Notes: generated by a model not told the origin, from the letters alone. 32,000 bases of DNA from Nitrosococcus oceani ATCC 19707 (GCF_000012805.1 NC_007484.1:780001-812000); one strand, 5' to 3'; positions 11,580 through 32,000 are shown, counted from the stretch's first letter. Translations and numbers: made by a program.

Positions 11580-12425
11580 ATGCTTTCGACTTTAACTAAT
11601 ATTATCGCCCGTCAGGATCTCCTTAAATCCTTGACCCTGAGCGAGTTGCAGTCTTCCACGGCCCAAATGCGGCTCGGCTGGTTATGGTGGCTGCTGGACC
11701 CTTTGCTGTTGATGGGGGTATATTGGGGAGTAATGGTGATCATCCTTGGCCGGGGGAATATTCGTTACGAACCCTACTGGATTTTCCTCTTCTGCGGCCT
11801 GATCGCCTGGAAGCATTTTGCGGAGAGCGCCGCCAAGGCTACCAATGTGCTCAGCGCCAAGGATCATCTTATTAAGTCGGTACCCTTTCCTACCATTATT
11901 TTGCCGATCGCCGTTGTGTTTTCGAGTTTTGGTTTTTTTTTATTCGGCATGGGGGTGCTCCTGGTTTTTGCCCTAGGCGCCGCTTTATCCGGCGCGTTAG
12001 TCCAGCATAGCGGTGATCTGCTTCCGCTGCTTCAACTCCCAGGCTTGATGGCGTTGCAGTTGCTCATTGTCACGGGGATTGCCCTGCCCCTGGCGTGCGT
12101 AGGGGCCTTGGTCCGGGATCTTTCCCCCTTTATCAACCACTTTCTTAGAATGGCCTATTACCTGTCGCCAGGGCTCTATGGTATCGACCTTATCCAGCGC
12201 CTTTTGACAGCCGAGTTCGGTTCCGAGTGGGGTAGTAAGCTATTCAACCTCTACATGCTCAATCCCTTTGCTATCCTGATTAGCGGTTACCGGGACAGTA
12301 TTTTTTATGGGGAGTTCATGCCGCTTTATTTTTGGCTCATACTTTTTCTGGAAGCCGGGATTTTACTCTTTGTGGGATATCGTATTTATCTTTATTATGA
12401 CCGCCGTGTCATCAAGTTTCTCTAG
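11580..12425 (+). CDS. wzm: ABC-2 type polysaccharide export permease (Wzm/TagG/KpsM type)
   Basis: 281 aa with about six TM helices. N-terminal 'LTLSELQSSTAQMRLGWLWWLLDPLL' resembles the ABC-2 permease signature region. Immediately followed by, and overlapping, an ABC ATPase gene. Confidence 0.75.
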   Translation: MLSTLTNIIARQDLLKSLTLSELQSSTAQMRLGWLWWLLDPLLLMGVYWGVMVIILGRGNIRYEPYWIFLFCGLIAWKHFAESAAKATNVLSAKDHLIKSVPFPTIILPIAVVFSSFGFFLFGMGVLLVFALGAALSGALVQHSGDLLPLLQLPGLMALQLLIVTGIALPLACVGALVRDLSPFINHFLRMAYYLSPGLYGIDLIQRLLTAEFGSEWGSKLFNLYMLNPFAILISGYRDSIFYGEFMPLYFWLILFLEAGILLFVGYRIYLYYDRRVIKFL

Positions 12426-13285
12426 TGAGTGAAGAATCTATAAGGCACGCTATGACTGGGGATTATCTTGCTATGACCGAGGAGGCTCGGGAGAAAGCTT
12501 CGGCACCGAGCCGACCGCGTCCCGTAAGTCCGCCCTTAATTGAGGTCCGCAACCTCAAACTCTGGTACCAACTGCAACAGCATAAACGCCGCTCGGTTAA
12601 AGAGGTTCTACTGTCTCCCCGCAAGGGATCAGCGCAGGTTCATTGGGCGTTGAATGGGGTGAGTTTCCAGTGCCATGAAGGGGAGGCGCTAGGGATCGTG
12701 GGCCACAATGGTGCGGGCAAGAGCACCTTGTGTCTGGTTTTGGCGGGCATCTTGACGCCGGATACCGGGACGGTCCAAGTTCGTGGTGAAGTGACGCCGC
12801 TGCTAAATTTTGGCGCCGGTTTTAACCGGGAGCTGACTGGTCGGACCAATGCCTATCTCTACGCCTCGTTTCTGGGCATTCCCCACCGGGTGGTGGATCG
12901 CCGTCTGGATGATATTATTGCCTTTTCGGAGCTGGGCAATTTTATCGATCAGCCCATGCGCAGTTACTCGGCAGGGATGAAGGCCCGGCTCGGTTTTTCC
13001 GTAGCCTCTATTTTGGACCCAAAAATCATGATCTTGGATGAGTCGCTGGCTCCTGGGGATTTGGCTTTTAAAGCCAAAAGCCGGACCCGGATGATGGAAA
13101 TGATTCAGCACAGCCAACTGCTGATCGTGGTTTCCCATTCTTGCGCCTTGCTGCGGCAAATTTGCACCCATTGCCTATGGTTGGACCATGGCCAGACCCG
13201 GCTGTTTGGGGAGGTCCATCAGGTGCTGGATGCTTACGAAGAAGCCATGGGAGGAGAGGAAATCCTTGATCTTGACGAACCATAA
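12425..13285 (+). CDS. wzt: polysaccharide export ABC transporter ATP-binding protein (Wzt/TagH type, no C-terminal carbohydrate-binding domain)
   Basis: Walker A 'GHNGAGKST', ABC signature 'YSAGMKARL', Walker B 'IMILDE'. The GTG start overlaps the wzm stop by 1 nt (TAGTG). At 286 aa it has an NBD plus a ~60-aa N-terminal extension only. Confidence 0.8.
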   Translation: MSEESIRHAMTGDYLAMTEEAREKASAPSRPRPVSPPLIEVRNLKLWYQLQQHKRRSVKEVLLSPRKGSAQVHWALNGVSFQCHEGEALGIVGHNGAGKSTLCLVLAGILTPDTGTVQVRGEVTPLLNFGAGFNRELTGRTNAYLYASFLGIPHRVVDRRLDDIIAFSELGNFIDQPMRSYSAGMKARLGFSVASILDPKIMILDESLAPGDLAFKAKSRTRMMEMIQHSQLLIVVSHSCALLRQICTHCLWLDHGQTRLFGEVHQVLDAYEEAMGGEEILDLDEP

Positions 13286-13300
13286 CCACACAGCAGCTTT

Positions 13301-14587
13301 ATGAATCTGGCCGCTCACGAAATCTTGGTAGATACCTATAACCTTCGGTTGCCCCAGGGCTCTGGGATTAAGACCTATGGGCTTTCCTTGCTCAATGCCT
13401 TGAGCCAGTGCCAGGCCCAGGTTTCCTTGCTGACGGATCGGTATATGCCTAAAAGCCGCTACCCGATTCTGGATGAAGTACATCTATTTGATCAGGCCAT
13501 GGACCACGCTCCTCGCCATCCCCGGCTTTGGCGGGGACTGCGGATGCTCTCCCATGCAGGTCGTACCCTGAGGGCAACGCCGGTGGATATTTCCCGGGTT
13601 ATTCCCCTGGAAGGCTTGGGCGGGACTTCTATCCATCGCTGTTATAATTCGCCTCAGCTTTATGAGATGGCCAACCAAACCTATCTGCGGTTGGGTAGAT
13701 TGACTCGGGTCAAATTTCCGCGGCCGCCTGCCCTTTGGCATGCTACTACGCCGCTGCCCATCCGTATTCGGGGTGCCCGGATGGTCACCACTGTTCATGA
13801 TTTAATTCCCTTGCGCCTGCCTTATACTACGTTGGATAACAAGCAATTTTTCTACCGGCTGGTGCGGGATGCACTGCGGGATTCGGATCTAGTGCTCACC
13901 GTTTCCGAATGCTCTAAACGGGATATTCTCGCTTTTTATGATATTCCTGAAGAGCGGGTTGTTGTGACCTATCAGTCCTTGTCCCTGAAGAAGGCCAGCA
14001 CTCATCAAAGGCAGTCTTTTTCTGTACTAAAGAGTTACGGGCTGACACCGGGCCAATATGTGCTATTCGTGGGAAATATTGAGCCTAAAAAAAATCTGGC
14101 GACTTTAATCAAGGCCATGAGCATGCTTCAGCATGATCTCCCTCTGGTAGTGGTAGGCCGAAAAGCTTGGCTCTGGGAAGAGCAACTCCAGATGGCCAAG
14201 CGCTACTTTGGCAGTAATGAAGCCAAGCGCCTGCGAATACTGGATTATGTGCCTTCCACCGTTTTAAGCACCCTTTATAGCCATGCTCTCTGCATGGCCT
14301 TCCCTTCTCTCTATGAAGGTTTCGGGCTGCCCGCCCTGGAGGCCATGAGCCATGGTTGCCCAGTCATTTCCTCCAATGCGAGCTCATTACCAGAAGTATG
14401 TGGCGAGGCTGCTCTTTATATGGACCCCCATGACTCCGATGGGCTTTATGCCCATATCGAATCGCTGTTGGAAGATGTTTGTTTAAGGGCACGTCTGATT
14501 GAAGGGGGTTACCGCCGGGTCGAGTATTTCAGCCCGGAACGTTATGCTGAGCGTCTCTCTACGGCCTATAGCCAGATCCTGGCCTGA
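13301..14587 (+). CDS. GT4-family (GT-B, group 1) glycosyltransferase
   Basis: C-terminal 'FPSLYEGFGLPALEAMSHGCPVISSNASSLPEV' is a classic EX7E-region group-1 motif. Confidence 0.8.
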   Translation: MNLAAHEILVDTYNLRLPQGSGIKTYGLSLLNALSQCQAQVSLLTDRYMPKSRYPILDEVHLFDQAMDHAPRHPRLWRGLRMLSHAGRTLRATPVDISRVIPLEGLGGTSIHRCYNSPQLYEMANQTYLRLGRLTRVKFPRPPALWHATTPLPIRIRGARMVTTVHDLIPLRLPYTTLDNKQFFYRLVRDALRDSDLVLTVSECSKRDILAFYDIPEERVVVTYQSLSLKKASTHQRQSFSVLKSYGLTPGQYVLFVGNIEPKKNLATLIKAMSMLQHDLPLVVVGRKAWLWEEQLQMAKRYFGSNEAKRLRILDYVPSTVLSTLYSHALCMAFPSLYEGFGLPALEAMSHGCPVISSNASSLPEVCGEAALYMDPHDSDGLYAHIESLLEDVCLRARLIEGGYRRVEYFSPERYAERLSTAYSQILA

Positions 14588-14615
14588 ACTTTCTAGCGAG
14601 TAGTAGGCGTTAGAG

Positions 14616-16103
14616 ATGTTACAGCCTCAAGACCGCTTGTATTTCATTCATATTCCCAAAACTGCCGGGACTACCCTGATTCCCCACCTGGATGCCCGCT
14701 TTCATGTGGATGAAATCTGTCCGGCGCAACTTTGGCCCCAGCTCTTGTTGCTTCCCCAGGAGACATTGCCCCGCTACCGCCTGTTTCGGGGACATTTTGG
14801 GGCCAAGGGACTGGATTGTTTTCTGCCGGAGCCGCCACTACGGATAACCATGCTGCGCCATCCCGTGCCCTTGGCTTTATCCACCTATCAATTTATTTTG
14901 CGGGAACCGGGCACCCATCTGCACCGTCTAGTAAAGTCCGGAAAAATGAGTTTTGCTGAGTTTTTACAGCACCCCAAAGCCCGCCTGGCGGTAACTAACA
15001 AGCAGGTGAGCAACCTGGGTTTCGAGCTGCGTTACCAACCAGGCAGGGGGCCGGCACTTTCTGCTGCCCGCGGCGCCAAGCAATGGGTGAATAGCCGCAA
15101 GGTGGTCTGCCCATCTCCGCAAGAGCGGCTTGAGGGAGCTCTTGCCGTCCTTCAGGAGTGCGTTTTTTTTGGCTTGGTGGAGCGTTTCGATGAGTCCATC
15201 GCCCTTTTGTCCTGGACCTTTGGCTGGCCTCCGGCGGGACCCGTGCAAAAATTAATGGTAGCGCCTCCGGCTTCCCGCCGGGGATCTGCCCTTTCTGCCT
15301 CCTTGGAGACGCAGATTCGCGCTTATAATCCGCTGGACCTGGCGCTCTATGAGGCGGCGGAAAAGCGATTTGAGGAGCGGCTAGCTGCCATGAGAGAGGA
15401 TTTGCAGCAATACGCAAGGGCGGGGGAGACGATGCCGGACTCCTTAATTGCTGATCCCCAGTTGCTCTATAAGTTACTGAAACGCCATTACCGATGTCAC
15501 CAGCCAAAGCAAGTCCGCCCGGCGGGCGCTTGTATTCGGATGACCTTTGCCGAGCCCTTGCCGGGAAGTGGCTGGCATCGCCGGGAGGAGGCACCCTCCG
15601 AGGGAATATTCTATCGTTGGACCGGCCCCGGCAGGGTGTCTACCCTGGCTTTCCCCTTGGGCGTTGCGGAAGATCTCGTAATAACTTTCCTGGTGCTAGA
15701 TGCGGCTTCCCGGACGATACTGGAAAGTCTGCAATTAACTGTCAACGGCCAGCCGGTGGCGCTTCGTTCCTTCGGTCGCGGTTCCCACTTCCCTCGGTAT
15801 TATCAGACTTTTGTGCCTCAGGATATTTTCTCCTCCAGAACTAGGCATATCCGGCTGGCCTTCCGGGTAGCCAAGACGGCGCATAGGGAACGCTTTTACT
15901 GGGACCCCCGCGCAGTGGGCGTCGCTATTGGCGGGGTGGAGCTCGCCCCCGCCCGGGAAGCCCCGCTGGAAGAAGTGCTTATGGCCCGGTTAAAGAAGCT
16001 CCGCCGCCCTATTTCATGGCGGCTCTGGCTGCTGCAAACCCCTTGGTTTGGCCCTCGGCTGAGAAAGTTGTATCTTTATCTGCGCGCTGTCTATTTTTCA
16101 TAG
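14616..16103 (+). CDS. sulfotransferase (family-2-like, HxPKTxGT type) with ~190-aa C-terminal extra domain
   Basis: N-terminal 5'-PSB-like 'FIHIPKTAGTT' and downstream 'ITMLRHPV'. The C-terminal part contains 'GSGWHRREE...FYRWTGP', shared with the ORF at 28135. Confidence 0.7.
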   Translation: MLQPQDRLYFIHIPKTAGTTLIPHLDARFHVDEICPAQLWPQLLLLPQETLPRYRLFRGHFGAKGLDCFLPEPPLRITMLRHPVPLALSTYQFILREPGTHLHRLVKSGKMSFAEFLQHPKARLAVTNKQVSNLGFELRYQPGRGPALSAARGAKQWVNSRKVVCPSPQERLEGALAVLQECVFFGLVERFDESIALLSWTFGWPPAGPVQKLMVAPPASRRGSALSASLETQIRAYNPLDLALYEAAEKRFEERLAAMREDLQQYARAGETMPDSLIADPQLLYKLLKRHYRCHQPKQVRPAGACIRMTFAEPLPGSGWHRREEAPSEGIFYRWTGPGRVSTLAFPLGVAEDLVITFLVLDAASRTILESLQLTVNGQPVALRSFGRGSHFPRYYQTFVPQDIFSSRTRHIRLAFRVAKTAHRERFYWDPRAVGVAIGGVELAPAREAPLEEVLMARLKKLRRPISWRLWLLQTPWFGPRLRKLYLYLRAVYFS

Positions 16104-16105
16104 CT

Positions 16106-16921
16106 ATGGTTGCTTCTTCTGTGGACTTTTCCCAGCCCTTTATTTATATCGCCGCTTTGCGGCGAACCGGTTCAACCATGCTGAGCGAGGCGCTCACGGC
16201 TTTACCTTGCTCGTTTATTTTTCGAGAACCCCATTTTGGCAGTAATAATTTTTCCCTAAAGCCGGGGGATGCTGACAGACTGAGGCCCTGGGGGGTTGAG
16301 CTGGAGCAACTGCGAGAGCAGTGGCTAGAGACCAGGGATGAGCGTCCTATTCTCGCTGCCCTGCAAGAAGAGTTGCTGTCCAAGCTCTCTCCACTAATTC
16401 AGCAATGGGGGGTCAAGGAAATCAGGCACAGAAACTGGCGGCGCTATTATCAGCAGTTTCCCGAGATGAAGGTCATTCTTACGGGCCGGGACCCGCGGGA
16501 TATTTATATTTCCCTTTTTTACCGCCAAAAAGCGGGTTATGGGCGATGGCGAGGACCCTATAATCCAGAATTAGTGGCGGCGGATTTAAATGTTGAGTTT
16601 CAAAGACAATTAGAAATGGCGGCGGCGATAGACTGCCTACCTGTCCGCTATGAGGATTTATGCCAGGATTCTCAAACCTTCGAAAAAATCAAACGCTTTG
16701 TGAAGAGCCCCTTGCCGGGGACAGGGGATATTGGCGGGTTTCTGAGCAAGGGTAAGCCAGGAAAAAGAATTGAGTATCAACTTCATGGCAAGCGTATTAC
16801 CGCGCAGCGTGTCCGCCGCTGGCAGGCGGAAACCAATGCTGCCCTGGTGGGAGAAGCGGAACAGGTTTTTGAACTGATGGCGGACTATTGCCATTATTGG
16901 GGGTATCGAAAAACCCCTTAA
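16106..16921 (+). CDS. sulfotransferase (P-loop 'RRTGST' type)
   Basis: 5'-PSB-like 'IAALRRTGSTMLSEAL' and 3'-PB-like 'LTGRDPRDIYISL'. ATG 16106 chosen, 3 nt after the upstream stop, instead of the overlapping 16016 start. Confidence 0.7.
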   Translation: MVASSVDFSQPFIYIAALRRTGSTMLSEALTALPCSFIFREPHFGSNNFSLKPGDADRLRPWGVELEQLREQWLETRDERPILAALQEELLSKLSPLIQQWGVKEIRHRNWRRYYQQFPEMKVILTGRDPRDIYISLFYRQKAGYGRWRGPYNPELVAADLNVEFQRQLEMAAAIDCLPVRYEDLCQDSQTFEKIKRFVKSPLPGTGDIGGFLSKGKPGKRIEYQLHGKRITAQRVRRWQAETNAALVGEAEQVFELMADYCHYWGYRKTP

Positions 16922-16943
16922 ATTAGAACCGATGGAACGAAAA

Positions 16944-16986
16944 TAAGGTAGGGCGGGAAAGCGTGAGCACATCCCGCCCTACCTTA
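16944..16986. terminator. bidirectional terminator hairpin between convergent genes
   Basis: Perfect 15-bp inverted repeat TAAGGTAGGGCGGGA (16944-16958) / TCCCGCCCTACCTTA (16972-16986) with a 13-nt loop. It lies between the + strand stop at 16921 and the - strand stop at 17009. Confidence 0.75.
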
Positions 16987-17008
16987 TCGAATCCCAAGTT
17001 AATTGTGG

Positions 17009-17737
17009 TTAGGGACCAATGAAACTGGAGCGGGTGGAGACGAATTCATCAATAAAGATACTTCCAACCGGGGCAAAATTGCCCCCCAGATAGCCTAGCC
17101 GGGCGCGATCAATGCCCCCATAGGCGGCATTATCGAGCTGGGTGGCTTCAAAGTTCGGGACCGCTTCATTGCCATTGTTGATCCAGATTCGGTAAGCGCC
17201 ATTGCCCTTCCCTATAATCAGCTCGATTTCGATGATGTTAGGGCCGTCTTCAAGGGGCAATTCCACCCGTTTTTTTCCGCCGCTACCGTCCGGCCGTGTC
17301 CACCGTGCCCAGGCGCGAATGACATAGCCTGAAGCGTCGCGTTTTAGTTTCATTTGAGCCACGCCGATGGGGAGGGCGGAGTTGCTCTGCTGCTGTTGGT
17401 TGGAAAACTTTAATTTTTCGGAATCATCGGCGGCGATGTCAACCCCATTGGGGTCAAAATAAAACCGGGCTCGGTAACGGGTTTCCTGGCTGGGGGTGGA
17501 ATCTTGAACATAGCGTTTGCCGTTAGGACCGTCGGTCCCGTCCAGTCGGATCTCAAGGCCGCAGTTGCTGTTTTTCATGGCCGCCGTGTCGTTGACGTGC
17601 AAATGACCGCCAGGATCCTCCGTTTGCCAGGCGGCAGTGGTGCCCCCCGTGCAGGCGGCGGAGGCCAGCAGGGGAAGCTGCAGTCCATAAAAGGCGGCGC
17701 TCCAGGCAATTAATTTTATGGCTCGATACTTTATCAT
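17009..17737 (-). CDS. secreted beta-rich protein (possibly ConA/LamG-like), unknown function
   Basis: Signal peptide 'MIKYRAIKLIAWSAAFYGLQLPLLASA|A'. Beta-strand-like periodicity throughout. Start could instead be ATG 17773. The fold guess is weak. Confidence 0.6.
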   Translation of the reverse strand: MIKYRAIKLIAWSAAFYGLQLPLLASAACTGGTTAAWQTEDPGGHLHVNDTAAMKNSNCGLEIRLDGTDGPNGKRYVQDSTPSQETRYRARFYFDPNGVDIAADDSEKLKFSNQQQQSNSALPIGVAQMKLKRDASGYVIRAWARWTRPDGSGGKKRVELPLEDGPNIIEIELIIGKGNGAYRIWINNGNEAVPNFEATQLDNAAYGGIDRARLGYLGGNFAPVGSIFIDEFVSTRSSFIGP

Positions 17738-17766
17738 CGTGATCTTTTTAACAAGAGTTGCGGAAT

Positions 17767-18804
17767 TCTCCATCTAAAATCTATGATTTAGATGGAGATG
17801 GATAGCGGCACAGGCTGAAAACCTGTTGTTATTGGCATTGGAGTGTGCCTTAGAAGGTTATTCAATGGTATGGTTTAGGTATGAAAGCGTACCAATTCAG
17901 GATTTATCCCAATACTGACCAGCAAGATCTGATGAACAAGCATTTTGGTTGTGTACGTCATATCTTCAATTGGGCTTTAGAACTTAAAGATAAACACTAC
18001 AAAGGAACACAAAAGAGCCTGTCCAAATCAGAGATTCAAAGCCTGCTGGTCAGAGCAAAAAAGAAGATAAACCCTGGCTCAAGGAAGTCAATAACCAAAG
18101 TCTGCTCTCTGCCTCGCTCCATCTTGAAACCGCCTTCACAAACTTTTTCAAAGGCCGAGGCAAGTTTCCCAAGTTCAAGAAGAAAGATACTTCTACCCAA
18201 TCCTTTCAATGCCCTCAGCATGTCAGCGTTGATTTTGATTTAGGGCTGCTCTACCTGCCTAAGTTCAAAACGGGTATTAAAACTAAATTTCACCGTCATT
18301 TCAAAGGCGAAATTAAAACGCTCATGATTAAGTGCAAGCCCAGTGGGAAGTTTTATGTCAGTATCCTGGTGGATGAAGCCAAAGCGCCCTCTCCCTCTGC
18401 CCCGATTGTTTTAGAGCAAACCATGGGTATTGATTTGGTCCTCTACAAAAGCCGCTGGGTCGGTAAGAACGTTCTCAGAATAGGTCGATTTGAGCCAAGC
18501 TCTAAAGTCCGCAATGCCTATGGCTACAAAGTGGATAAACTCCCTTTGCGCGTTCGTCATTGGGCTTGTCCGGCTTGTGGTGCTGCATTAGATAGAGACA
18601 TCAATGCTGCCAAAAATATCAAAAAAATAGCTTTAGCTGATGCGCTCGGGCAGAGCGTGTATGTCAAGCGTTCCCTTGAAACCATACCTGTCAGCGCAGG
18701 TGTTTCAGCGAGAGGTGTCGATGTTCATCGGCATGGGTCGCAAGAAGCCCTCACTACCATGGCCCTAGCAATTTAGGGGTGGGGATATGTCACTACTTAT
18801 CCCT
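17767..18804 (+). mobile_element. decayed IS200/IS605-family (tnpB-only, IS1341-like) element
   Basis: A TnpB pseudogene is flanked by hairpins. The left one is a perfect 12-bp stem TCTCCATCTAAA (17767-17778) / TTTAGATGGAGA (17787-17798). The right one is a 6-bp stem GGGATA (18782-18787) / TATCCC (18798-18803). No tnpA is present. Exact ends are not determinable by eye. Confidence 0.55.
17881..18776 (+). pseudogene. tnpB: TnpB (IS605 OrfB, RuvC-type RNA-guided nuclease) pseudogene
   Basis: N-terminus 'MKAYQFRIYPNTDQQDLMNKHFGCVRHIFNWAL' is typical of TnpB. There is a frameshift near the A-run at 18057-18062; frame 0 then reads 'KPWLKEVNNQSL...AFTNFFKGRGKFPKFKKK...GIDL'. After 'GIDL' the sequence jumps to 'YKSRWVGKN...RFEPSSK', so roughly 100+ aa including the middle RuvC region appear deleted. 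The Zn-finger is degraded ('SSKVRNAYGY', then 'CPACG'), while 'DRDINAAKNI' is retained. Confidence 0.8.
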
Positions 18805-25403: not shown

Positions 25404-26363
25404 ATGGCAGGGAAAATTTTTGATTGCAATGAACCCATTCGAATCGACGCTCAAGCTATTGCCGCTTGGCAGTCCTTGCCGGTCGCCGAGCGGAGCAGAA
25501 GAAACCGGGACTGGATCGGTCCGCGGGTTATTCAATGGAAGCAATTGCAGGAGGCGTCCCTGCCCCATGATCCTTGTCATTATCGTTTATTTTACCTCCA
25601 TGCGCCGAAAACCGGGGGAACCACCTTGCAGCATTTGATTGCAAAAAATTATCGTGTCAATGACGTACTGCAGGTGAATGCCAAGGAAGCGCTGCGGAAT
25701 CCAGGGCTTCTTTATAAAAAGGGGGAGCTGCCAAAAAGTGTCATTACCGGCCATTATGATATGGGCCATCTGCTGTACCGGGCGCTTGAGGGGCCTTTTT
25801 TTCATCTGACTTTGCTGCGGCATCCGGTGCCACGGGTACTGTCGCTTTATAATTACATGCTCGGGAAAACCGATCATAACCATCACCAAAAGGCCGTCAC
25901 GAGAAGTTTCCCGGAGTTCATCCAGTCGGTAGATATATTTGAACTAAGCAACGGGCAAACTAAGCGGCTAGCGGGGAGTATAGGGCTGAAAATCGATCAA
26001 CCCTCGTCGTTAGGAGACGAAGCGCTTGAAATCGCCAAGGACAATCTGGCCCATCGCTTCACCTGCTTTGGCCTGCAAGATCGCTATACAGAGCTTCTTT
26101 TGATAATGAAGCAGCTTTTAGGCTGGGCGGATATTTTTTATCGCTGCCGGAACGTCTCGGAGAAACGGGTCAAAAAAGAAGATATGGACCAAGAGACATT
26201 GGCTTGTATTCAGGAGCGTAATTATTATGATCTTGCGCTCTATGATTTTGCTAGTCAGCTATTTGAGGAGCGGTGCCGGCAACTTGGTATTACCCAAGCA
26301 CGGGTAGAGGGATTTTGGAAGGCGAATGACCAATATCTCGAATTATTATCACGCTCTCTTTAA
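25404..26363 (+). CDS. sulfotransferase (family-2-like, HxPKTxGT type)
   Basis: 'FYLHAPKTGGTTLQHLI' and 'LTLLRHPVPRVLSLY'. Catalytic domain only. The start could also be TTG 25392. Confidence 0.7.
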   Translation: MAGKIFDCNEPIRIDAQAIAAWQSLPVAERSRRNRDWIGPRVIQWKQLQEASLPHDPCHYRLFYLHAPKTGGTTLQHLIAKNYRVNDVLQVNAKEALRNPGLLYKKGELPKSVITGHYDMGHLLYRALEGPFFHLTLLRHPVPRVLSLYNYMLGKTDHNHHQKAVTRSFPEFIQSVDIFELSNGQTKRLAGSIGLKIDQPSSLGDEALEIAKDNLAHRFTCFGLQDRYTELLLIMKQLLGWADIFYRCRNVSEKRVKKEDMDQETLACIQERNYYDLALYDFASQLFEERCRQLGITQARVEGFWKANDQYLELLSRSL

Positions 26364-26378: not shown

Positions 26379-28061
26379 GTGATATTCAATCAGAGGATAG
26401 GAAGTATTCATAACCCATATGCCCGAGTCAGGCGGATAATTCTGTCCTGGGCCTGGACGCTCCCGGCCTTCTTTGCAGTGTATGGCGTGAACAATATAAA
26501 TGGGATGGATGCCGATGCCTTGGGCGCATTCCGCTATACGCAGGATATCGTCCAAGCGATTTTTGACGGTATTCCAATTGCCTGGAGCTGGCAAGAAGCG
26601 CCACGCTATTTTCCGGATCTCATTATCTCCACCGTTGCCTATCTGCTGGCTTTTGGCGATCCGGCTAAATGGGGAATACTATTTTCCTTATTAAATCTGG
26701 GACTGCTGTATGGCGCGACCCTTTTATTGCTGTGGGCCTATGGAATCGCTGAATCCAGGAGACGCCCCATCGCCTGCTCTTTTATGCTTGGTTGTCTTGT
26801 TTGCGCGGCGGTGAGCCCTTTTTTCGCCCAGCAATGGCTGGCTCCTACTCACCATAACGGGCTGTTGCCCTTGGCCGTATTATTCTATGCCGCCCCTTCC
26901 ATCTGCGCGCGGTTTAATGATCGCGCTGCTAGGGAGGTGGGCATATTGGGGTTTTCGGTAATTTTTGGGTTGGCTATCCATGCCGATCTCATTTTTCTGG
27001 CGTGGGTCTGTGGGCCTTTATTCGCGGCCTGGCTTGTTCTTGCGCTGCTACGAAAAGGCAATATACAGACCTTTGTTCTCTGCGGCATGATACTGGGCCT
27101 TTCCTTGGGCATCGCTGGCACCGCCAATATTATCGTGGAACTACTGCCTTTCGTGGCTATTCATAGCGGTGATAACTTGCTGGAACAATTTCCCGGCTCC
27201 ATGGAAGAAATGATTGCCCGATTTTATACGCTGGGGCAAGTGTACATGCATCCTGGTTCATTTAGCTTGCTTACCATCCAGGTGCTTGCCGCGCTGGTGT
27301 GCTTAGCTACGTTGCGGCGAAGCAGGCGATCGGATGATAAGAAAAAAGAACAGCCTATGGAAGTTTTCATGGCGGTATTGTTTTTTACCACGACCGCCTT
27401 GCTTCCCGTGGCCATGATTATTACCGGCAAGCTTTCTCCCCACTATTATTTTTATTCTTTCGTCATTGCGGTGCTAGTGATTGCAATTAACCGCACCGTT
27501 TTTTCCGAGCATTCGGGAACTGGCCCGCTGCGGTTTAGAGAGTTGTTCATTGGCGGCGCCGCTGCCATAGCAGTATTATTATTGTTCCCTAAAGCGATTG
27601 CGGTGCAAGCGAAACCGCCGGCATTTACTATGCTTACTAATGCCCTGACTGAACTGCATTCCCAGGGTAAAATCGGCAAGCATGGTTTGGCCCACTATCA
27701 GATGGCCTATCCTGTAACGGCCCGAACGCCCTTCTATGTGGGGGCTATCGCAAATGACGCTAGACCCTGGTTATGGATGAACAATGCTTATGGTTACTGG
27801 AACTGGGATAAGGGTTGCCCTGCTCTCCGTCCTTTTTCATTCATTATCACCGCTCAAAAATTAAGGTACCGTATCCCTCCTGAGGCTCTTCAAAAAATTT
27901 TTGGCAAGCCCTCTAACATTATGAAGGTAGAGAGCCAAGAAGGCTATGAAATTTGGCTTTATCCCCAAGAGATAGGTCTAAAAGAAACTTTATTTTATCT
28001 TTTTATATGGCGTTCCATGGAAGTAAAGGGGGTGCCTATGGATCGTATCAAAAATTGCTAA
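26379..28061 (+). CDS. polytopic membrane protein, possibly a GT-C-type (ArnT/PMT-like) glycosyltransferase
   Basis: 560 aa with at least 10 hydrophobic helices followed by a ~150-aa soluble C-terminal domain. The first extracytoplasmic loop has acidic 'GMDADALGAFRY', reminiscent of the GT-C DxD/DExRY loop. The GTG start is uncertain. Confidence 0.45.
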   Translation: MIFNQRIGSIHNPYARVRRIILSWAWTLPAFFAVYGVNNINGMDADALGAFRYTQDIVQAIFDGIPIAWSWQEAPRYFPDLIISTVAYLLAFGDPAKWGILFSLLNLGLLYGATLLLLWAYGIAESRRRPIACSFMLGCLVCAAVSPFFAQQWLAPTHHNGLLPLAVLFYAAPSICARFNDRAAREVGILGFSVIFGLAIHADLIFLAWVCGPLFAAWLVLALLRKGNIQTFVLCGMILGLSLGIAGTANIIVELLPFVAIHSGDNLLEQFPGSMEEMIARFYTLGQVYMHPGSFSLLTIQVLAALVCLATLRRSRRSDDKKKEQPMEVFMAVLFFTTTALLPVAMIITGKLSPHYYFYSFVIAVLVIAINRTVFSEHSGTGPLRFRELFIGGAAAIAVLLLFPKAIAVQAKPPAFTMLTNALTELHSQGKIGKHGLAHYQMAYPVTARTPFYVGAIANDARPWLWMNNAYGYWNWDKGCPALRPFSFIITAQKLRYRIPPEALQKIFGKPSNIMKVESQEGYEIWLYPQEIGLKETLFYLFIWRSMEVKGVPMDRIKNC

Positions 28062-28134
28062 TAGTGAATTAGTTAAAAAATTTTTATTAAATAATAAGTA
28101 AATATTTCAGGATCTTCAGAAAAAAACTACTACC

Positions 28135-29442
28135 ATGCCGACAACAGCGCCTAAGCTCCATTTTCTTCATATCCCGAAAACGGCCGGAACTTCTGTCACC
28201 CAGTTTCTTCAGCGGCAATATGATTTAGATCAAATCGTCTTTGAAACCACCTGGCGGGAACTTTTTGAATATCAGCCAAGGATGCCAAAATTAAAATTAT
28301 TTCGTGGCCATTTTGGCATTAATTTAAGCCAAATGATTGGCCCGGAATTCAAGGTAATAACCTTTCTACGGGAGCCGGTAAGCAGAGTGATATCCCAGTA
28401 CTATCATGTCCGTAAAAGAGCTACTGAAGGGCTAAATCAGTTTGCTGGAGAAATGGAATTAGCCGAATTTATGCACCATAAACAGGGACGTAAATTATGC
28501 CGTAATCTTCAAACCCGCTATATTGGCAGGAGTTTGGAAGTAGGGCAACTCTGGGCGCACCCTGCTGTATTGAATATTCCGCCGGATAGATTCTTTGACG
28601 ATCTAGCCTCGCCGCTGCTATTAGAACAAGCCAAACAGAATCTGAACGGTTTCTTTTTCGTTGGATTGACTGAATATTATGATATCTCCATGCTCCTGTT
28701 GTGCCATAAACTGGCCGCGCTTCCTGAACTCGATGCGGTCAAGCGAAGAGAACGAGAAAGAGATGCTAAGCGGGTGCCTACTGAGGTGCTCCAACATTTA
28801 GAGGCGGAGAATCAGCTAGATATGGAATTATACCGTCACGGGAAGACTCTTCTGGTACATGATCTGGCTAGTGAGTTTAATCTGCCAGAGATTGCCTCCA
28901 TGCCGGTGGAGGCGGCCCTGGATTATGTGAATGAGAGAAAATCCAATTTATCGGAAGCCTGTTTGTCCCGCTATGGGCGACGTATGCGGGCGGAGCAACA
29001 GGAAAACTGGGAGTGGGATGTCTCCATGGCGTTCCAGGGGACAGGCTGGTCGGATGCGCATGGTCGGCTGGGAGAAACGCCTCACCGCTGGTCGGGGCCA
29101 AAGCTAATTTCCACCGTTGATGCGCCAGTCGATCCCCGGCGCGATTATGAAATAACAATACACATATTGCGATTTATGACAGGGCGGAACCAACGCCAAT
29201 TGGAAGTGCATACTTCTTCCGGTCCCATTTCCTTAAAAGGAAGAAAAATGGGTAGTGGCTGGGTAGGCCAGGGGATAGTAAATGGTCAATCTACCGAAGA
29301 CCCTTTTTTAAGGTTAAGCTTTCACGTGCCTGAAACCGTGTCGGTGGCTGAGCTAGGCGGAGATCCTAATGATACGGATAAGCGGGGTTTTGCGCTACGG
29401 GCAATTATCTTAAACCCCATCCCGGCTTCACAGAAGCGGTGA
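28135..29442 (+). CDS. sulfotransferase (family-2-like, HxPKTxGT type) with ~145-aa C-terminal extra domain
   Basis: 'LHFLHIPKTAGTSVTQFL' and 'ITFLREPVSRVISQY'. The C-terminal part contains 'GTGWSDAHGRLGETPHRWSGP', shared with the ORF at 14616. Confidence 0.7.
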   Translation: MPTTAPKLHFLHIPKTAGTSVTQFLQRQYDLDQIVFETTWRELFEYQPRMPKLKLFRGHFGINLSQMIGPEFKVITFLREPVSRVISQYYHVRKRATEGLNQFAGEMELAEFMHHKQGRKLCRNLQTRYIGRSLEVGQLWAHPAVLNIPPDRFFDDLASPLLLEQAKQNLNGFFFVGLTEYYDISMLLLCHKLAALPELDAVKRRERERDAKRVPTEVLQHLEAENQLDMELYRHGKTLLVHDLASEFNLPEIASMPVEAALDYVNERKSNLSEACLSRYGRRMRAEQQENWEWDVSMAFQGTGWSDAHGRLGETPHRWSGPKLISTVDAPVDPRRDYEITIHILRFMTGRNQRQLEVHTSSGPISLKGRKMGSGWVGQGIVNGQSTEDPFLRLSFHVPETVSVAELGGDPNDTDKRGFALRAIILNPIPASQKR

Positions 29443-29549
29443 TAATTATTAAAAAATGGAAAGTTTAACGCACCCCTAGCTATCAAGGTTAGAGTGCAGT
29501 GTTACCCTGCAGTATTAGTTTTACAGCTCTAAACAAGGCGAATAATAAT

Positions 29550-31610
29550 ATGGTGAAGCCGCTGGTGGTATTAACGCTTATCGTATTTTTTTTCTTTAGC
29601 TTAGTGGTTCTTGCTAACTCATTGGATGAATCGGTTGCGGAAAAATCCTTTGCGATTAAGTCTTATCAAGAGATCAAACTCGCTTCCCCCCACGATGTCT
29701 TTGATATGGGTGTGGCCGATATCAATGGTGATGATATCCTGGATATTTATACAACCGGCCATTATACTCGCGAGAATTTGCTTTTGGGGGATGGCAAGGG
29801 AAATTATACGGATGCCCTGACTCGCTTGGGTTTGGATCAGGCAAGAGCGTTTCCCTATTTGGAAGACATGGACGCGGACCCGGTGCTAGAGGAACCCGGC
29901 CTTTACATTCATCGGCGACGCCGGTTATTAATCTTTAGAGCCCATGGGCTGAGCGAGGAGGGAACGATTTCCGGCCGCATTTTAGTGCCTTCTCCCGCCG
30001 ATAGGCCCTTGCCGATTCAGACTTACTGGGCAGAGCACGCCAGCGCGGATATCATTAATTTGGCTTCGGAATCCGGTGAGACTTGGACCAAAGTCCAATT
30101 TTCCATCGCACCCCAAGGTACGTTGGTGCTTGATACCCTCTATATTGCCTTGCCTTTCGAGGTGACGCTGGATTCATCTCTACCCTTAAACAAGGTGAAG
30201 GTGGGGCAGCATTCTCTTCCTCCCAAGGAACATCATTTTGTCCTAAGATGGCGTGATCGTCATGGCGTGGCCTGGACGGAATTGAATGGTGACGAATGGT
30301 TGGATGTCTTTATGTCGACCGGCGGTTTGCGGGCAGCCCTTCATCGCTTCCAACAGTCGCAAATTGCTTCCGATGAACTCTTGCTCAGCGACGGAGGCAG
30401 CCGCTACCGGGACGTCGCCATTGAACGGGGAATTCAGAAAAGAGACTGCCGGACCTATAAACCCGCCTGGGTGGATATTAACCGAGATAACCGCCTGGAC
30501 CTGTATGTAGGTTGCCTGGGTGGTCCCAATCAGCTTTATTTGCAGGATTCAACGGGACAGTTCAGAGAGGTTGCTAAAAAGTACGGCTTAGCGACGAGGC
30601 CAGGGGCTCAATTCGTCTGGCTTGACGTGGATCAGGACGGCGATAGTGATTTATTGGCCGATCTCAATGGTGACGGCAACCATCTAAACCCTAACTTTAG
30701 TCTGTTCACCGACACCGATAGCCGGGTTGCATTATTCATCAACGATAAGGTGAAGTTTAAACGGAAGCTTATTCCCCGGCCGTTTAAAGGCAGCGTGATG
30801 CGGTTTGCCCTGGGGGATTTTGACTCCGATGGGGATCAGGATGTTTACGTCATTACGGCCCGTAAAAAATACCGCCATGAGAGTTTCTTGCTGGTGAATA
30901 ATAAGGGAAGGCTGGAACCCAAGGATATGCGGCAATGGGGTCTTCCCAAGGGCTGTCTCTCGGCAAGCTGGGTCGATGTGGATCTGGATGGCAAGCTGGA
31001 TTTTCACTGCTTGCCTAGGGGGATTTTCTATCAAGCCGAAAACGGACATTTTCAAAGTGCTAATGAATGGACCGGTTGGAAGGCGGCCCAGAGAGCAAGA
31101 AATGGTGTAAGCTCTTGGTACGACGCCGATAATGACGGGGCCTGGGATGTATTGATGACCCTAGGTATTCCCCCGGCGGAAGAGTATTTCAAAATCCTTC
31201 GGGAATGGCAACGGCAGCAGGCGGAGAAACAGGGCCAAACACTTAAAGAATGGCGGTTGGCGCGTGAGGATGTGGCCTGGCCATTGCGGCCCATGTGGCA
31301 TTGGTATCATACCCGGCTCTATCAAGGACAGCCGCCTGCAAACCATTGGTTGCAGCTTGAATTGGCGGGTCCAACCGGTAACCGGAATGCCATTGGCGCC
31401 AGAGTGGAACTCTTAACGGATGAGGGTGCCCAGGTTCGCGAGGTGGGTGTTTCAGAGGGCGCCCATTTTTCCCAAGGACATTACCGTCTTTATTTTGGTC
31501 TGGGAAAATCTCCACAAGCTAAGGAGGTAACGATATACTGGCCTGATGGGAAATTGACGACCCACTCCGATCTTAAAGCTGATCAGCTTCTTAAAATCTC
31601 CTATCCCTAA
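29550..31610 (+). CDS. secreted FG-GAP/VCBS-repeat protein with C-terminal ASPIC/UnbV domain (CRTAC1-like)
   Basis: Signal/anchor 'MVKPLVVLTLIVFFFFSLVVLANS'. Repeats 'VADINGDDILDIY', 'WVDINRDNRLDLYVG', 'LDVDQDGDSDLLADLNGDG', 'LGDFDSDGDQDVYV', 'WVDVDLDGKLDF', 'WYDADNDGAWDVL'. C-terminus 'GNRNAIGARVEL...HFSQGHYRLYFGLG...VTIYWPDG' is typical of UnbV_ASPIC. Start moved from 29499 to ATG 29550. Confidence 0.8.
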   Translation: MVKPLVVLTLIVFFFFSLVVLANSLDESVAEKSFAIKSYQEIKLASPHDVFDMGVADINGDDILDIYTTGHYTRENLLLGDGKGNYTDALTRLGLDQARAFPYLEDMDADPVLEEPGLYIHRRRRLLIFRAHGLSEEGTISGRILVPSPADRPLPIQTYWAEHASADIINLASESGETWTKVQFSIAPQGTLVLDTLYIALPFEVTLDSSLPLNKVKVGQHSLPPKEHHFVLRWRDRHGVAWTELNGDEWLDVFMSTGGLRAALHRFQQSQIASDELLLSDGGSRYRDVAIERGIQKRDCRTYKPAWVDINRDNRLDLYVGCLGGPNQLYLQDSTGQFREVAKKYGLATRPGAQFVWLDVDQDGDSDLLADLNGDGNHLNPNFSLFTDTDSRVALFINDKVKFKRKLIPRPFKGSVMRFALGDFDSDGDQDVYVITARKKYRHESFLLVNNKGRLEPKDMRQWGLPKGCLSASWVDVDLDGKLDFHCLPRGIFYQAENGHFQSANEWTGWKAAQRARNGVSSWYDADNDGAWDVLMTLGIPPAEEYFKILREWQRQQAEKQGQTLKEWRLAREDVAWPLRPMWHWYHTRLYQGQPPANHWLQLELAGPTGNRNAIGARVELLTDEGAQVREVGVSEGAHFSQGHYRLYFGLGKSPQAKEVTIYWPDGKLTTHSDLKADQLLKISYP

Positions 31611-31624
31611 TTCAGGATATCAGC

Positions 31625-32000
31625 GTGGAACAATTGACGAAAAAAATATTCCAGCTATGGAATCGTGCGTGGACCAAAATGCCTACCGATACTTACTCCA
31701 TCGAAGGCAAACTTAATCAACTCTTGGAGGAAAACAAGCGGTTGCGGGGAGAGGTAAGAAAGCTGCTGGACACCCGTACTTTTTACCTCGGTAACAACAC
31801 CGCGCTGACCTTCCTTGCTAATGGCTCGAAACTGTATGTGTTTACTGATGATGTGGGTATTGCGCCTCATATCATCAGCACAGGGAGATGGGAGCCCCAT
31901 ATTACCAGGGTTTTTACCAGCCTAATAAAGAAAGGGGATACTGTGCTCGATATTGGCGCGAATCTTGGTTATTTTTCAGTGATTGCTGCTCCGCTCGTTG
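31625..32000 (+). CDS. FkbM-family methyltransferase, 5' part (runs off the window)
   Basis: Not in the ORF track because there is no stop in the window. My translation from GTG 31625: 'MEQLTKKIFQLWNRAWTKMPTDTYSIEGKLNQLLEENKRLRGEVRKLL...GRWEPHITRVFTSLIKKGDTVLDIGANLGYFSVIAAPLV'. 'GDTVLDIGANLGYFS' is the FkbM SAM-binding motif. An alternative start is ATG 31679. Confidence 0.7.
   Translation, partial: MEQLTKKIFQLWNRAWTKMPTDTYSIEGKLNQLLEENKRLRGEVRKLLDTRTFYLGNNTALTFLANGSKLYVFTDDVGIAPHIISTGRWEPHITRVFTSLIKKGDTVLDIGANLGYFSVIAAPLV

Follow-up and report, generated by a model that had tools for sequence, protein, structure and literature searches.

Does a gene cluster in which seven predicted sulfotransferase genes lie among those of a polysaccharide exporter specify one multiply sulfated surface glycan? 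This question is raised by a stretch of 32,000 nucleotides from the genome of Nitrosococcus oceani ATCC 19707, a marine bacterium that oxidises ammonia (the window; all positions are counted from its first letter), where a polysaccharide locus runs from position 11580 to the end. The locus includes Noc_0733, here termed ST-A (100% identity), and the glycosyltransferase gene Noc_0739 (GT-A); literature searches found no published work on these genes. With a probability of about 0.7, we regard the stretch as the main part of a Wzm/Wzt-dependent surface-glycan locus, the product of which would be multiply sulfated in the cytoplasm before export. This functional reading, in which PAPS-type sulfotransferases modify a Wzm/Wzt-exported glycan, was the core of the original prediction and fits our computational tests; the novelty claimed along with it was too strong.

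Sulfotransferase-family genes of the locus

The seven ORFs that had been singled out by their PAPS-binding-type motifs were all found in the sequence, each at its position and with its motif, and six of them scored above the Pfam gathering cutoff, which is 27 bits for Sulfotransfer_3 and 22 bits for Sulfotransfer_2. Four are of the Sulfotransfer_3 type: ST-B (16106-16921, plus strand; RRTGST and RDPRD, within RDPRDIYIS; 40.5 bits), ST-C (18840-19658, plus; GHSGHS and RNPFD; 50.5 bits), ST-D (19639-20595, minus; QKSGTS and RNPLA, within RNPLANTYS; 68.3 bits) and ST-E (23337-24239, plus; RRSGTT and RHPQQ, within RHPQQVVAS; 72.1 bits). The minus-strand orientation of ST-D had been omitted before. 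The Sulfotransfer_2 type is represented by ST-F (25404-26363, plus; LHAPKTGGTT and RHPVPRVLS; 30.9 bits) and ST-G (28135-29442, plus; LHIPKTAGTS; 32.7 bits). The nearest sequence matches of ST-G in the PDB were heparan sulfate (HS) 6-OST (4.8e-6) and 2-OST.

ST-A (14616-16103, plus; FIHIPKTAGTT), with a Sulfotransfer_2-like domain, stayed below threshold in Pfam, its match to Gal-3-O_sulfotr reaching 19.9 bits against a cutoff of 27. We nevertheless accept it as a sulfotransferase because it is paralogous to two other members of the set, aligning end to end with ST-G (E 2e-28) and also matching ST-F (E 9e-18), because H12, K15, G18, H60, R81 and S89 are invariant in its family (38 homologs), and because its model resembles HS 6-OST. 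The AlphaFold (AF2) model (pLDDT 89.4) found HS 6-OST (5t03) as its top Foldseek match (E 9e-7) and also matched the bacterial sulfotransferase 3rnl, the fold having been tested on ST-A alone. We conclude that the seven ORFs of the window are members of the sulfotransferase family and not chance motif matches.

The count of seven holds for the window and is too low for the locus, which continues for about 5 kb beyond the window end and has nine sulfotransferase domains in all. Downstream of an FkbM-family gene lie genes for a fusion of a methyltransferase with an ST-A-like module (897 aa), for ST-H (339 aa) and for a further GT4 enzyme, GT4c (361 aa). Both the 5'-PSB and the 3'-PB motifs were found in all nine domains. 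The 5'-phosphosulfate-binding P-loop, of the form PKxGTT or (R/K)SGT(T/S), is present in all seven window ORFs, with ST-C atypical: in its GHGHSGHS loop, His replaces the usual Lys/Arg. The odd loop is kept in N. watsonii (dN/dS 0.23), and judging from this sequence ST-C may be catalytically inactive. In the 3'-PB motif, Arg and Ser are spaced as R-x7-S in ST-A, ST-B, ST-D, ST-E, ST-F and ST-G and as R-x6-S in ST-C. Save for one pair, the sulfotransferases share no more than 28% identity; the set reflects deep paralogy and not recent duplication. A hydrophobic-segment scan detected no transmembrane segment or signal peptide in any of them, and for this reason we read them as cytoplasmic.

In ST-A, the sulfotransferase domain (residues ~1-265) is followed by a helical linker, a CBM-like beta-sandwich (~305-447) and a basic C-terminal helix (452-494). 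The C-terminal domain of the model matched CBM6, CBM15, CBM35 and MiXBM. This domain is common to ST-A, ST-G and the methyltransferase fusion; ST-F has none. Fusion proteins join the ST-A module to Wzt and to a methyltransferase.

Exporter, glycosyltransferases and neighbouring genes

The Wzm/Wzt exporter that had been predicted is borne out, clearly for Wzt and more weakly for Wzm. The Wzm-like ABC-2 permease (11580-12425, plus; 281 aa, six hydrophobic segments) has no match in Pfam and is recognisable only through NCBIfam galactan_ABC_perm (2.6e-8), over the nearly full length of residues 5-256. Its N. watsonii counterpart shares 96% identity (dN/dS 0.065), and its gene overlaps wzt by 1 nt. 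The ABC ATPase Wzt (12425-13285, plus; 286 aa) scores 79 bits with Pfam ABC_tran and matches the NCBIfam models for galactan Wzt/RfbE (1.3e-59) and TagH (3e-52). The scores of both proteins lie far under the equivalog cutoffs and show type, not orthology. Wzt is of the short form, without a C-terminal carbohydrate-binding domain.

Both GT4 enzymes proposed for the window are supported by Pfam: GT4a (13301-14587, plus), a retaining GT-B glycosyltransferase (Glycos_transf_1, 102 bits), and GT4b (24276-25385, plus; Glyco_trans_1_4, 60 bits; Glycos_transf_1, 55 bits). Noc_0739 (20592-21593, minus; 333 aa) had been labelled GT8-like. It has no match in Pfam, Glyco_transf_8 included, and no sequence match in the PDB. 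Its model (pLDDT 94.9), however, has the fold of glycogenin (2.5e-9), alpha3GalT, UGGT and WbbM, and a DxD motif, D100-x-D102, is invariant. A retaining GT-A glycosyltransferase is therefore what remains of the label, with GT8, GT6 and GT24 fitting about equally well.

Also as predicted, the window encodes a type I sulfatase (21932-23323, plus; Pfam Sulfatase, 203 bits) with the formylglycine motif CTPTR (CxPxR) and a Tat-type signal, TRRKFLK, which predicts a periplasmic location; its NCBIfam arylsulfatase match (1.3e-41) is under the model cutoff. The polytopic membrane protein (26379-28061, plus; 560 aa) has ~9-11 transmembrane segments and a C-terminal soluble part. Only 15 relatives were found among 1.84 billion representatives, with D46, after TM1, and F78-P79 as invariants. 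Searches of Pfam and the PDB found no family homologous to this protein, GT-C families included, and the GT-C label given to it earlier is unproven. An FG-GAP (VCBS)/ASPIC-UnbV repeat protein (29550-31610, plus; FG-GAP_3, 85 bits; UnbV_ASPIC, 68 bits) is signal- or TM-anchored by an N-terminal hydrophobic segment and has the orientation of its neighbours. The FkbM-family methyltransferase gene (306 aa, plus) is indeed present, with just its 5' part, from about 31625 to 32000, in the window. Two further elements are less readily assigned to the pathway. A secreted protein with a signal peptide (17009-17773, minus; 242-254 aa) has no Pfam or PDB match and a counterpart in N. watsonii that is 79% identical (dN/dS 0.26); its membership is uncertain. 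A broken IS605-family TnpB, in two ORF fragments (17881-18776, plus; HTH_OrfB_IS605, 63 bits; Cas12f1-like_TNB, 52 bits), is missing from the corresponding N. watsonii site and is an insertion scar outside the pathway.

Junctions are mostly tight or overlapping, as had been noted, with gaps of -20 to +87 nt except for a divergent promoter gap of 338 nt and the gap of 1066 nt that holds the TnpB remnant. Only 2 nt separate ST-B from ST-A, and ST-D shares 4 nt with the GT-A gene upstream of it. The sulfotransferase genes are interleaved and translationally coupled with those for glycosyltransferases. Compared with N. watsonii, 13 genes, all intact, have dN/dS values of 0.07-0.31 (ST-E: 91% identity, 0.12), which shows purifying selection on the tested genes over a dS of ~0.3-0.7.

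No ORF in the 11.5-32 kb region matched Wzx or Wzy_C in Pfam, and the window has no gene for a priming phosphoglycosyltransferase, nucleotide-sugar synthesis, an O-antigen ligase (WaaL) or an outer-membrane exporter. Genes for priming and for ligation or export usually lie at other genomic sites. The PAPS genes cysDN/cysC are absent from the window and the flanks examined.

Related loci in other lineages

GT4a orthologs adjoin ST-A homologs in six other loci, with 43-78% identity in the five measured; GT4a is the conserved partner of ST-A across phyla. A GT4 gene beside a sulfotransferase gene with the C-terminal domain recurs, usually next to Wzm-Wzt. The core cassette of Wzm, Wzt, GT4 and a sulfotransferase with the CBM-like domain is also found in Marinicella meishanensis, Elainellaceae and an uncultured bacterium, in which the GT4a orthologs share 43% identity; related arrangements occur in a Nitrosopumilus MAG. 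Cyanobacterial homologs of ST-A and GT4a are 35-44% identical. Four to seven sulfotransferase genes surround Wzm/Wzt in Marinicella and Nitrospiraceae (seven in the Nitrospiraceae MAG loci), and at least five are present in the Nitrosopumilus MAG. A locus of anammox Brocadiaceae (Ca. Wujingus) has five sulfotransferases and shares the GT-A/Sulfotransfer_3 gene pair, but is Wzy-type; its single Wzt-like match adjoins an importer-type permease gene and is for that reason probably unrelated. With its nine domains, the locus of N. oceani is larger than any other found here, and it differs from the related loci by its additional sulfatase, orphan membrane protein and methyltransferase fusion.

A candidate pathway, its alternatives and known systems

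In the pathway that we infer, the three GT4 enzymes and the retaining GT-A enzyme would assemble a lipid-linked glycan on the cytoplasmic side of the inner membrane, where soluble sulfotransferases would use PAPS to O-sulfate it at several sites. The CBM-like beta-sandwich of ST-A, ST-G and the methyltransferase fusion probably keeps each enzyme on the growing chain, and the basic C-terminal helix of ST-A may act as a membrane tether. The FkbM protein and the methyltransferase-sulfotransferase fusion would methylate the glycan, possibly as chain-end caps. The finished polyanion would leave via Wzm/Wzt, and the Tat-exported, formylglycine-type sulfatase could then trim or edit its sulfate groups in the periplasm. 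That several regiospecific sulfations fall on one polymer, as first proposed, is likewise something that we infer; nine sulfotransferases against four or five glycosyltransferases could represent alternative or redundant enzymes and not nine sites per repeat. Because the locus has no outer-membrane exporter of the Wza/KpsDE type, an LPS O-antigen is the most likely destination.

The glycan could instead be transferred to protein, as part of an S-layer or secreted glycoprotein and not of lipid A-core, with the 560-aa membrane protein as the oligosaccharyltransferase. Analogues would be the ABC-dependent S-layer glycan pathways of Gram-positive bacteria and, in haloarchaea, S-layer glycans that carry sulfate. 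The position of the membrane protein in mid-operon, its invariant Asp after TM1 and its soluble C-terminal domain would suit such a role, as would the lack of a WaaL or Wza gene in the window; moreover, two tandem, abundant-looking secreted paralogs (74% identical, no known domains) are encoded 5-8 kb upstream. Between these paralogs and the locus, however, lie unrelated genes in both orientations. No similarity of the membrane protein to Wzy_C/WaaL/PglL or a GT-C family could be detected, and a gene of the ligase type (Wzy_C) in the Nitrospiraceae locus speaks for the LPS route. We consider transfer to protein unlikely.

It is also quite unlikely, in our view, that the locus is a mosaic island in which only a subset of the sulfotransferases acts on the glycan, the others being inactive, redundant, or active on protein tyrosine or small molecules. 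Were this so, a count of seven to nine would overstate the complexity of sulfation. IS605-family remnants lie within the locus, GC content varies along it from 44% to 59%, and the P-loop of ST-C is non-canonical. The sulfotransferase set is not fixed, since ST-F is absent from the syntenic position in N. watsonii. Members of Sulfotransfer_3 elsewhere use acceptors that are not polysaccharides, and ST-D has weak sequence matches in the PDB to tyrosylprotein sulfotransferases. Nonetheless, the tested genes are all intact and under purifying selection, the paralogs are ancient and not duplicates in decay, and translational coupling ties the sulfotransferases to glycosyltransferases. Sets of four to seven sulfotransferases around Wzm/Wzt have, in addition, been kept independently in other lineages. 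A small sulfated glycolipid or oligosaccharide, similar to a Nod factor or sulfolipid and exported by an ABC-2 system of the NodIJ kind, is very unlikely. In its favour, Wzt also matches NodI models (5.8e-23), glycosyltransferases are few relative to sulfotransferases, and lipo-oligosaccharides are the acceptors of the sulfotransferases of rhizobia and mycobacteria (PMC8205485). The matches of Wzt to exporters of polysaccharide and teichoic acid are far stronger, however (1e-59 and 1e-55), acyltransferase, NodC-like and polyketide genes are absent, and the presence of a CBM-like domain on three of the sulfotransferases suggests that they bind a polymer.

A sulfated polymer exported through Wzm/Wzt, the reading that we prefer, has partial counterparts among known systems. 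ABC-dependent O-polysaccharides include those of E. coli O9a, with its terminator WbdD, and of Klebsiella O2a. The N. oceani locus shares with Wzm/Wzt O-polysaccharide pathways the adjoining, overlapping wzm and wzt genes, the cytoplasmic GT4 enzymes and the lack of Wzx/Wzy, and its methyltransferases (FkbM and the bifunctional enzyme) could be chain-capping enzymes like WbdD in O9a. It differs by nine sulfotransferase domains, by a periplasmic sulfatase encoded in the locus, and by a short Wzt, the CBM-like domains being found instead on modifying enzymes. Literature searches found no sulfate-modified O-polysaccharide from a Wzm/Wzt pathway. In the animal heparan sulfate system, 2-OST and 6-OST are the nearest solved structures to the Sulfotransfer_2-type ST-A and ST-G, several sulfotransferases act on one glycan, and the Sulf endosulfatases resemble the N. 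oceani sulfatase as a possible post-export editor. ST-A and ST-G, however, are only 21-22% identical to the heparan sulfate enzymes and would be cytoplasmic, not Golgi-anchored, and the locus has no N-deacetylase/N-sulfotransferase or epimerase gene. The synechan xss cluster of Synechocystis PCC 6803 also places sulfotransferases among the glycosyltransferases of an extracellular polysaccharide, but is Wzx/Wzy/PCP-dependent, with two sulfotransferases and the regulators XssQRS (PMC8205485). Domain searches found neither Wzx/Wzy/PCP nor XssQRS in the N. oceani window; the PilS/PilR pair encoded at 18-3016 is of a different type from these regulators.

The suggestion that no such system was known to have been characterised in proteobacteria was too strong. 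For Cobetia marina KMM 1449 and for Vibrio sp. KMM 8419, capsule structures have been solved and proven by NMR to be sulfated, and their clusters combine ABC (Kps-type) export with in-cluster sulfotransferases and cysNDC(Q) (PMC11766843, PMC11641403). These gammaproteobacteria resemble N. oceani in predicted ABC export and in having sulfotransferase genes within a polysaccharide cluster. They differ in their KpsMTED/KpsSC group 2/3 machinery, in-cluster cysNDC(Q) and one to three sulfotransferases, whereas N. oceani has a Wzm/Wzt exporter, nine sulfotransferase domains and no PAPS genes in the locus; kpsMTED, kpsSC and cysNDC domains were found neither in the window nor in the 10 kb downstream. 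Clusters of the ABC type with sulfotransferases had also been noted in cyanobacteria (PMC8205485). As judged by gene content, the N. oceani locus is not unique, sulfotransferase-rich ABC-exporter loci being present in Marinicella, cyanobacteria, Nitrospiraceae and a Nitrosopumilus MAG. In N. oceani, such a locus probably directs the synthesis of a heavily sulfated, heparin-like surface polymer, as yet unisolated.

Organization and conservation of the locus

The map was built by ORF calling combined with Pfam and NCBIfam scans of the window. The glycan locus of Nitrosococcus oceani opens with the genes of an ABC exporter, a Wzm-like permease (11580-12425, +) and a Wzt ATPase (12425-13285, +) of the short type (286 aa), which is without a C-terminal carbohydrate-binding domain. 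These are followed by the gene for a GT4 glycosyltransferase (GT4a, 13301-14587, +) and by those for the first two candidate sulfotransferases, ST-A (14616-16103, +; 100% identical to Noc_0733 of strain ATCC 19707) and ST-B (16106-16921, +). A secreted 254-aa protein (17009-17773, -), for which Pfam and PDB searches gave no hit, and a broken IS605-family TnpB (17881-18776, +) precede ST-C (18840-19658, +), ST-D (19639-20595, -), a GT-A-fold protein of 333 aa (Noc_0739; 20592-21593, -), a sulfatase (21932-23323, +), ST-E (23337-24239, +), a second GT4 enzyme (GT4b, 24276-25385, +), ST-F (25404-26363, +), a polytopic membrane protein (26379-28061, +), ST-G (28135-29442, +), an FG-GAP/ASPIC-UnbV protein (29550-31610, +) and the start of an FkbM methyltransferase gene (about 31625, +). 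The Rfam search of the window found no RNA family, and the promoter and terminator scan showed no enrichment relative to shuffled sequences. Two draft assemblies, GCA_000740745.1 and GCA_007990675.1, carry stretches identical to the window.

On the source contig the locus continues with four more genes, coding for the FkbM methyltransferase, which runs past the window end (306 aa at full length), a SAM methyltransferase fused to a complete ST-A-like module (897 aa), a further Sulfotransfer_3 protein, ST-H (339 aa, 42.7 bits), and a third GT4 enzyme (361 aa); genes for a GT2 and a DUF2304 protein lie slightly further downstream. The fusion protein is 47% identical to ST-A, with the FIHIPKTAGTT motif intact and the same C-terminal domain. 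The original prediction counted seven sulfotransferases, a number that holds for the window; because the fusion module and ST-H lie past its end, the whole locus has nine sulfotransferase domains. Apart from ST-A and the fusion protein (47%), the sulfotransferases share at most 28% pairwise identity, which rules out recent tandem duplication, and most Sulfotransfer_3 members are mutually undetectable by BLAST. Judged by sequence, they are old paralogs.

The TnpB gene is split into two pieces (17881-18243 and 18324-18776, +), with the HTH_OrfB_IS605 and the Cas12f1-like TNB domains on separate fragments, and a second HTH_OrfB remnant of 30 aa follows the FkbM gene about 800-900 nt past the window end (13262-13354 of fetched locus L005). 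FG-GAP/VCBS repeat proteins flank the locus (among the ORFs at 7481-8884, +, 8896-10899, -, and 29550-31610, +), one of them with an ASPIC/UnbV domain, and a secreted reprolysin-like metalloprotease (M12B, ADAM-type; 667 aa) lies between them. Further upstream, tandem genes (3613-4791 and 5208-6434, +) code for secreted paralogs of 392 and 408 aa, 74% identical and with signal peptides, which matched nothing in Pfam and PDB searches and could be envelope or S-layer-type proteins; the gene at the corresponding place in Nitrosococcus watsonii codes for 408 aa and drew no Pfam match. The window begins with an ordinary two-component pair, a histidine kinase of the PilS type and a sigma-54 response regulator of the PilR type (18-1685 and 1643-3016, +), which lies some 8.5 kb upstream of wzm.

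N. watsonii C-113 carries a syntenic locus without the TnpB scar. Its site corresponding to ST-F (25404-26363 in the window) is without that gene, and the membrane protein gene comes straight after GT4b (about 19696-19848 of fetched locus L007); thus, the sulfotransferase set differs between the sister species. Across 13 orthologous pairs, dN/dS was 0.07-0.31 and dS 0.32-0.74, with all genes intact, and decay into pseudogenes is thereby ruled out. Adjacent homologs of GT4a and ST-A were also found in two further contigs, one from a metagenome (78% and 63% identity), the other an ENA contig of 3.6 Mb (51% and 45%).

The sulfotransferases and their associated proteins

Each of the motifs on which the original prediction was based was found in the sequence. 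The Pfam profiles recognized six of the seven ORFs above gathering scores, as Sulfotransfer_3 for ST-B (40.5 bits), ST-C (50.5), ST-D (68.3) and ST-E (72.1) and as Sulfotransfer_2 for ST-F (30.9) and ST-G (32.7), but gave only a sub-threshold Gal-3-O-sulfotransferase match for ST-A. The full length of ST-A, however, could be aligned with ST-G (27% identity, E 2e-28), which itself matched heparan sulfate 6-O- and 2-O-sulfotransferases by sequence, and its catalytic domain with ST-F (E 9e-18). Across 38 aligned homologs, H12, K15 and G18 of the 5'-PSB, the G59-H60 pair, and R81 and S89 of the 3'-PB were invariant, and the best PDB match of the AlphaFold2 model (pLDDT 89.4, pTM 0.86) was the heparan sulfate 6-O-sulfotransferase 5t03 (E 9e-7). 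On the strength of this paralogy, the invariant motif residues and the match of the model, we accept ST-A as a sulfotransferase. The P-loop and the Arg...Ser 3'-phosphate motif are present in all seven. The P-loop of ST-C is unusual (GHGHSGHS), in that His replaces the usual Lys/Arg and Thr of the PAPS-binding loop; N. watsonii has the loop too, and a dN/dS of 0.23 indicates purifying selection on the gene. ST-C may have altered chemistry or may be a non-catalytic paralog.

Signal peptides and credible transmembrane segments are absent from all seven; the one hydrophobic stretch picked up in ST-A falls, in the model, in beta-strands of its C-terminal domain. The seven are therefore assigned to the cytoplasm, where PAPS is available. 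The C-terminal domain (about 150-190 residues) is common to ST-A, ST-G and the fusion protein. In the ST-A model it forms a beta-sandwich (roughly residues 305-447) that matches carbohydrate-binding modules in the PDB (MiXBM 7ehg, CBM6, CBM15 and CBM35), followed by basic, aromatic-rich helices (residues 452-494), modeled with lower confidence, that could be a membrane tether. Two homologs of ST-A carry the module in other contexts. P0080 combines a Wzt-type ATPase with a degenerate ST-A-like module that has lost the PKTxGT P-loop and kept the C-terminal beta-sandwich, and that may be a pseudo-enzyme turned recognition domain; in P0078 an intact module is fused to a SAM methyltransferase. The ST-A module is therefore physically tied to the assembly of ABC-exported glycans. 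The fusions also prompt the idea, by analogy with WbdD of E. coli O9a, that some of the enzymes might act at, or recognize, the chain end. The long C-terminal extensions of Wzt in other loci were considered as homologs of the ST-A domain; the jackhmmer survey did not link the two.

For the 333-aa protein there was no sequence match in Pfam or the PDB, and a sequence-profile search of its family against the PDB was also empty. The fold assignment came from the structure model alone (pLDDT 94.9), which matches retaining GT-A enzymes, among them glycogenin (GT8), alpha-1,3-galactosyltransferase (GT6), UGGT (GT24) and WbbM; D100-x-D102 is invariant in the family. The label GT8-like given to this protein is thus correct at the level of the fold. 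The sulfatase has a twin-arginine signal (TRRKFLK) and a formylglycine motif (CTPTR), and its predicted site of action is the periplasm, once the glycan has been exported. The 560-aa membrane protein has about 9-11 transmembrane segments, with a soluble part at the C-terminus, and its family is very rare. An exhaustive search of 1.84 billion representative proteins returned 15 relatives, ten of which were scanned and showed no Pfam domain, and a word-indexed homolog search gave three matches, all Nitrosococcus-like; Pfam at E<=10 and phmmer against the PDB found nothing for the protein itself. D46, after the first transmembrane segment, and the F78-P79 pair are invariant. The position of D46 is compatible with a GT-C-type or ligase-type enzyme and proves nothing; the searches gave the GT-C-like label of the original prediction neither support nor contradiction.

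Related loci and known sulfated polysaccharides

To survey other lineages we used a profile search with the ST-A alignment, at one genome per species, followed by jackhmmer on 80 fetched loci with the window's own proteins as seeds. Nitrosococcus itself was not among the matches listed. Marinicella meishanensis NBU2979, a cultured, heterotrophic gammaproteobacterium, has a compact seven-gene Wzm-Wzt-ST-ST-GT4-ST-ST cassette between housekeeping genes (4302-12536 of fetched locus L015), and in an Elainellaceae cyanobacterium, as in an uncultured bacterium, two or three sulfotransferases that carry the C-terminal domain come after Wzm-Wzt-GT4. A MAG titled as the chromosome of a Nitrosopumilus, an ammonia-oxidizing archaeon (OZ250174.1), has at least five genes of the Sulfotransfer_2 type around Wzm/Wzt, in a region that looks native, since its local GC is 32.7%. 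Three Nitrospiraceae/Nitrospirales MAGs have six or seven sulfotransferase genes around Wzm and a long Wzt, within 21 kb and with an O-antigen-ligase-type (Wzy_C) gene nearby, and a Wzy-type locus of the anammox bacterium Ca. Wujingus californicus (Brocadiaceae) has five Sulfotransfer_3 genes beside one for a homolog of the GT-A protein. Set among the matches listed, the N. oceani locus is the richest in sulfotransferases, and it belongs to a recurrent, apparently uncharacterized class. Sulfotransferase-rich loci may be a pattern of nitrogen-cycle lithotrophs or a sampling effect; the apparent weighting is unproven, because the survey is a sample and not a census.

To our knowledge, sulfated polysaccharides have long been held to be nearly absent from bacteria outside the cyanobacteria, and hardly any of the enzymes that add sulfate to bacterial polysaccharides have been characterized biochemically. 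The literature search found no paper treating these N. oceani genes and nothing usable on sulfate-activation genes in the species; in a genome comparison of N. oceani strains, the only mention of a sulfotransferase concerns another cluster, specific to AFC132 (PMC7285500). Synechan is made by a Wzx/Wzy-type xss cluster with two sulfotransferases, and cyanobacterial sulfotransferase genes are found mostly in Wzx/Wzy-type or ABC-type polysaccharide clusters (PMC8205485). The statement in the same paper that no sulfated polysaccharide is known in other bacteria is now outdated, because NMR has given the structures of the sulfated capsules of Cobetia marina KMM 1449 and Vibrio sp. KMM 8419, whose gene clusters hold Kps-type ABC exporters, sulfotransferases and cysNDC (PMC11766843, PMC11641403). 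Sulfated GAG-like polymers are also known from Pontiella strains, with three candidate sulfotransferases in strain F21 (PMC7356697), and are reported from anammox and granular-sludge matrices and possibly from nitrifying ones (PMC7356697, citing Boleij 2020; PMC10483923). These findings weaken the earlier statement that no such system was known to have been characterized in proteobacteria; a Wzm/Wzt locus this rich in sulfotransferases is undescribed as far as our literature searches go.

A candidate route to a sulfated surface glycan

Alongside the observed family membership, fold, motifs, topology, gene coupling, conservation and recurrence, we propose that the locus probably (at about 0.7) makes a multiply sulfated, Wzm/Wzt-exported glycan by a six-step route. 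The GT4 enzymes and the GT-A enzyme would assemble a lipid-linked glycan in the cytoplasm, where the soluble sulfotransferases, three of which would be anchored to the polymer through a CBM-like domain of their own, would sulfate it at several positions. The glycan would then be methylated, possibly at the chain end, and exported by Wzm/Wzt, after which the Tat-exported sulfatase could optionally desulfate particular positions. Display would most probably be as O-antigen, because the locus is without a Wza/KpsDE-type exporter. What we infer is the acceptor, how many distinct sites are sulfated, the sequence of the steps, the part played by the sulfatase and the final destination. The glycan could instead be attached to protein rather than to lipid A-core; the product could be a small sulfated glycolipid or oligosaccharide; or the locus could be a mosaic, in which only some of the sulfotransferases serve the glycan. 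As to the multiply sulfated, exported glycan, the original prediction is plausible but unproven, and less unprecedented than it held, given Cobetia, Vibrio and the recurrent loci.

A bolder and, in our estimation, rather unlikely reading is that the N. oceani locus is the largest case of an unrecognized, phylum-crossing cassette, in which Wzm-Wzt and a single conserved GT4 go together with sulfotransferases that bear a fused carbohydrate-binding-like domain. Its products would be surface polymers of a heparin-like kind, sulfated densely and in combinatorial patterns that the Tat-exported sulfatase would edit after export. Together, the sulfotransferases and the sulfatase would parallel, in bacteria, the "sulfation code" that sulfotransferases and Sulf enzymes set in animals. 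As the cassette or related loci rich in sulfotransferases occur in Nitrospiraceae, a Nitrosopumilus genome and an anammox bacterium, the cassette could be the genetic source of the reported sulfated GAG-like matrix polymers.

Sulfated polysaccharides are valuable as heparin-like drugs and hydrogels. The locus is a source of nine divergent candidate carbohydrate sulfotransferases, of which three have a glycan-binding-like domain built in, together with a matched sulfatase, in a cultured model nitrifier; the seven-gene version of M. meishanensis should be far more tractable. If the product is confirmed, the locus would provide an enzyme toolbox for regiospecific glycan sulfation and a genetic handle on the sulfated matrix polymers of anammox and granular-sludge biomass, and possibly of nitrifiers. 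It may also bear on how marine nitrifiers handle cations, iron, phage and grazers at their surface.
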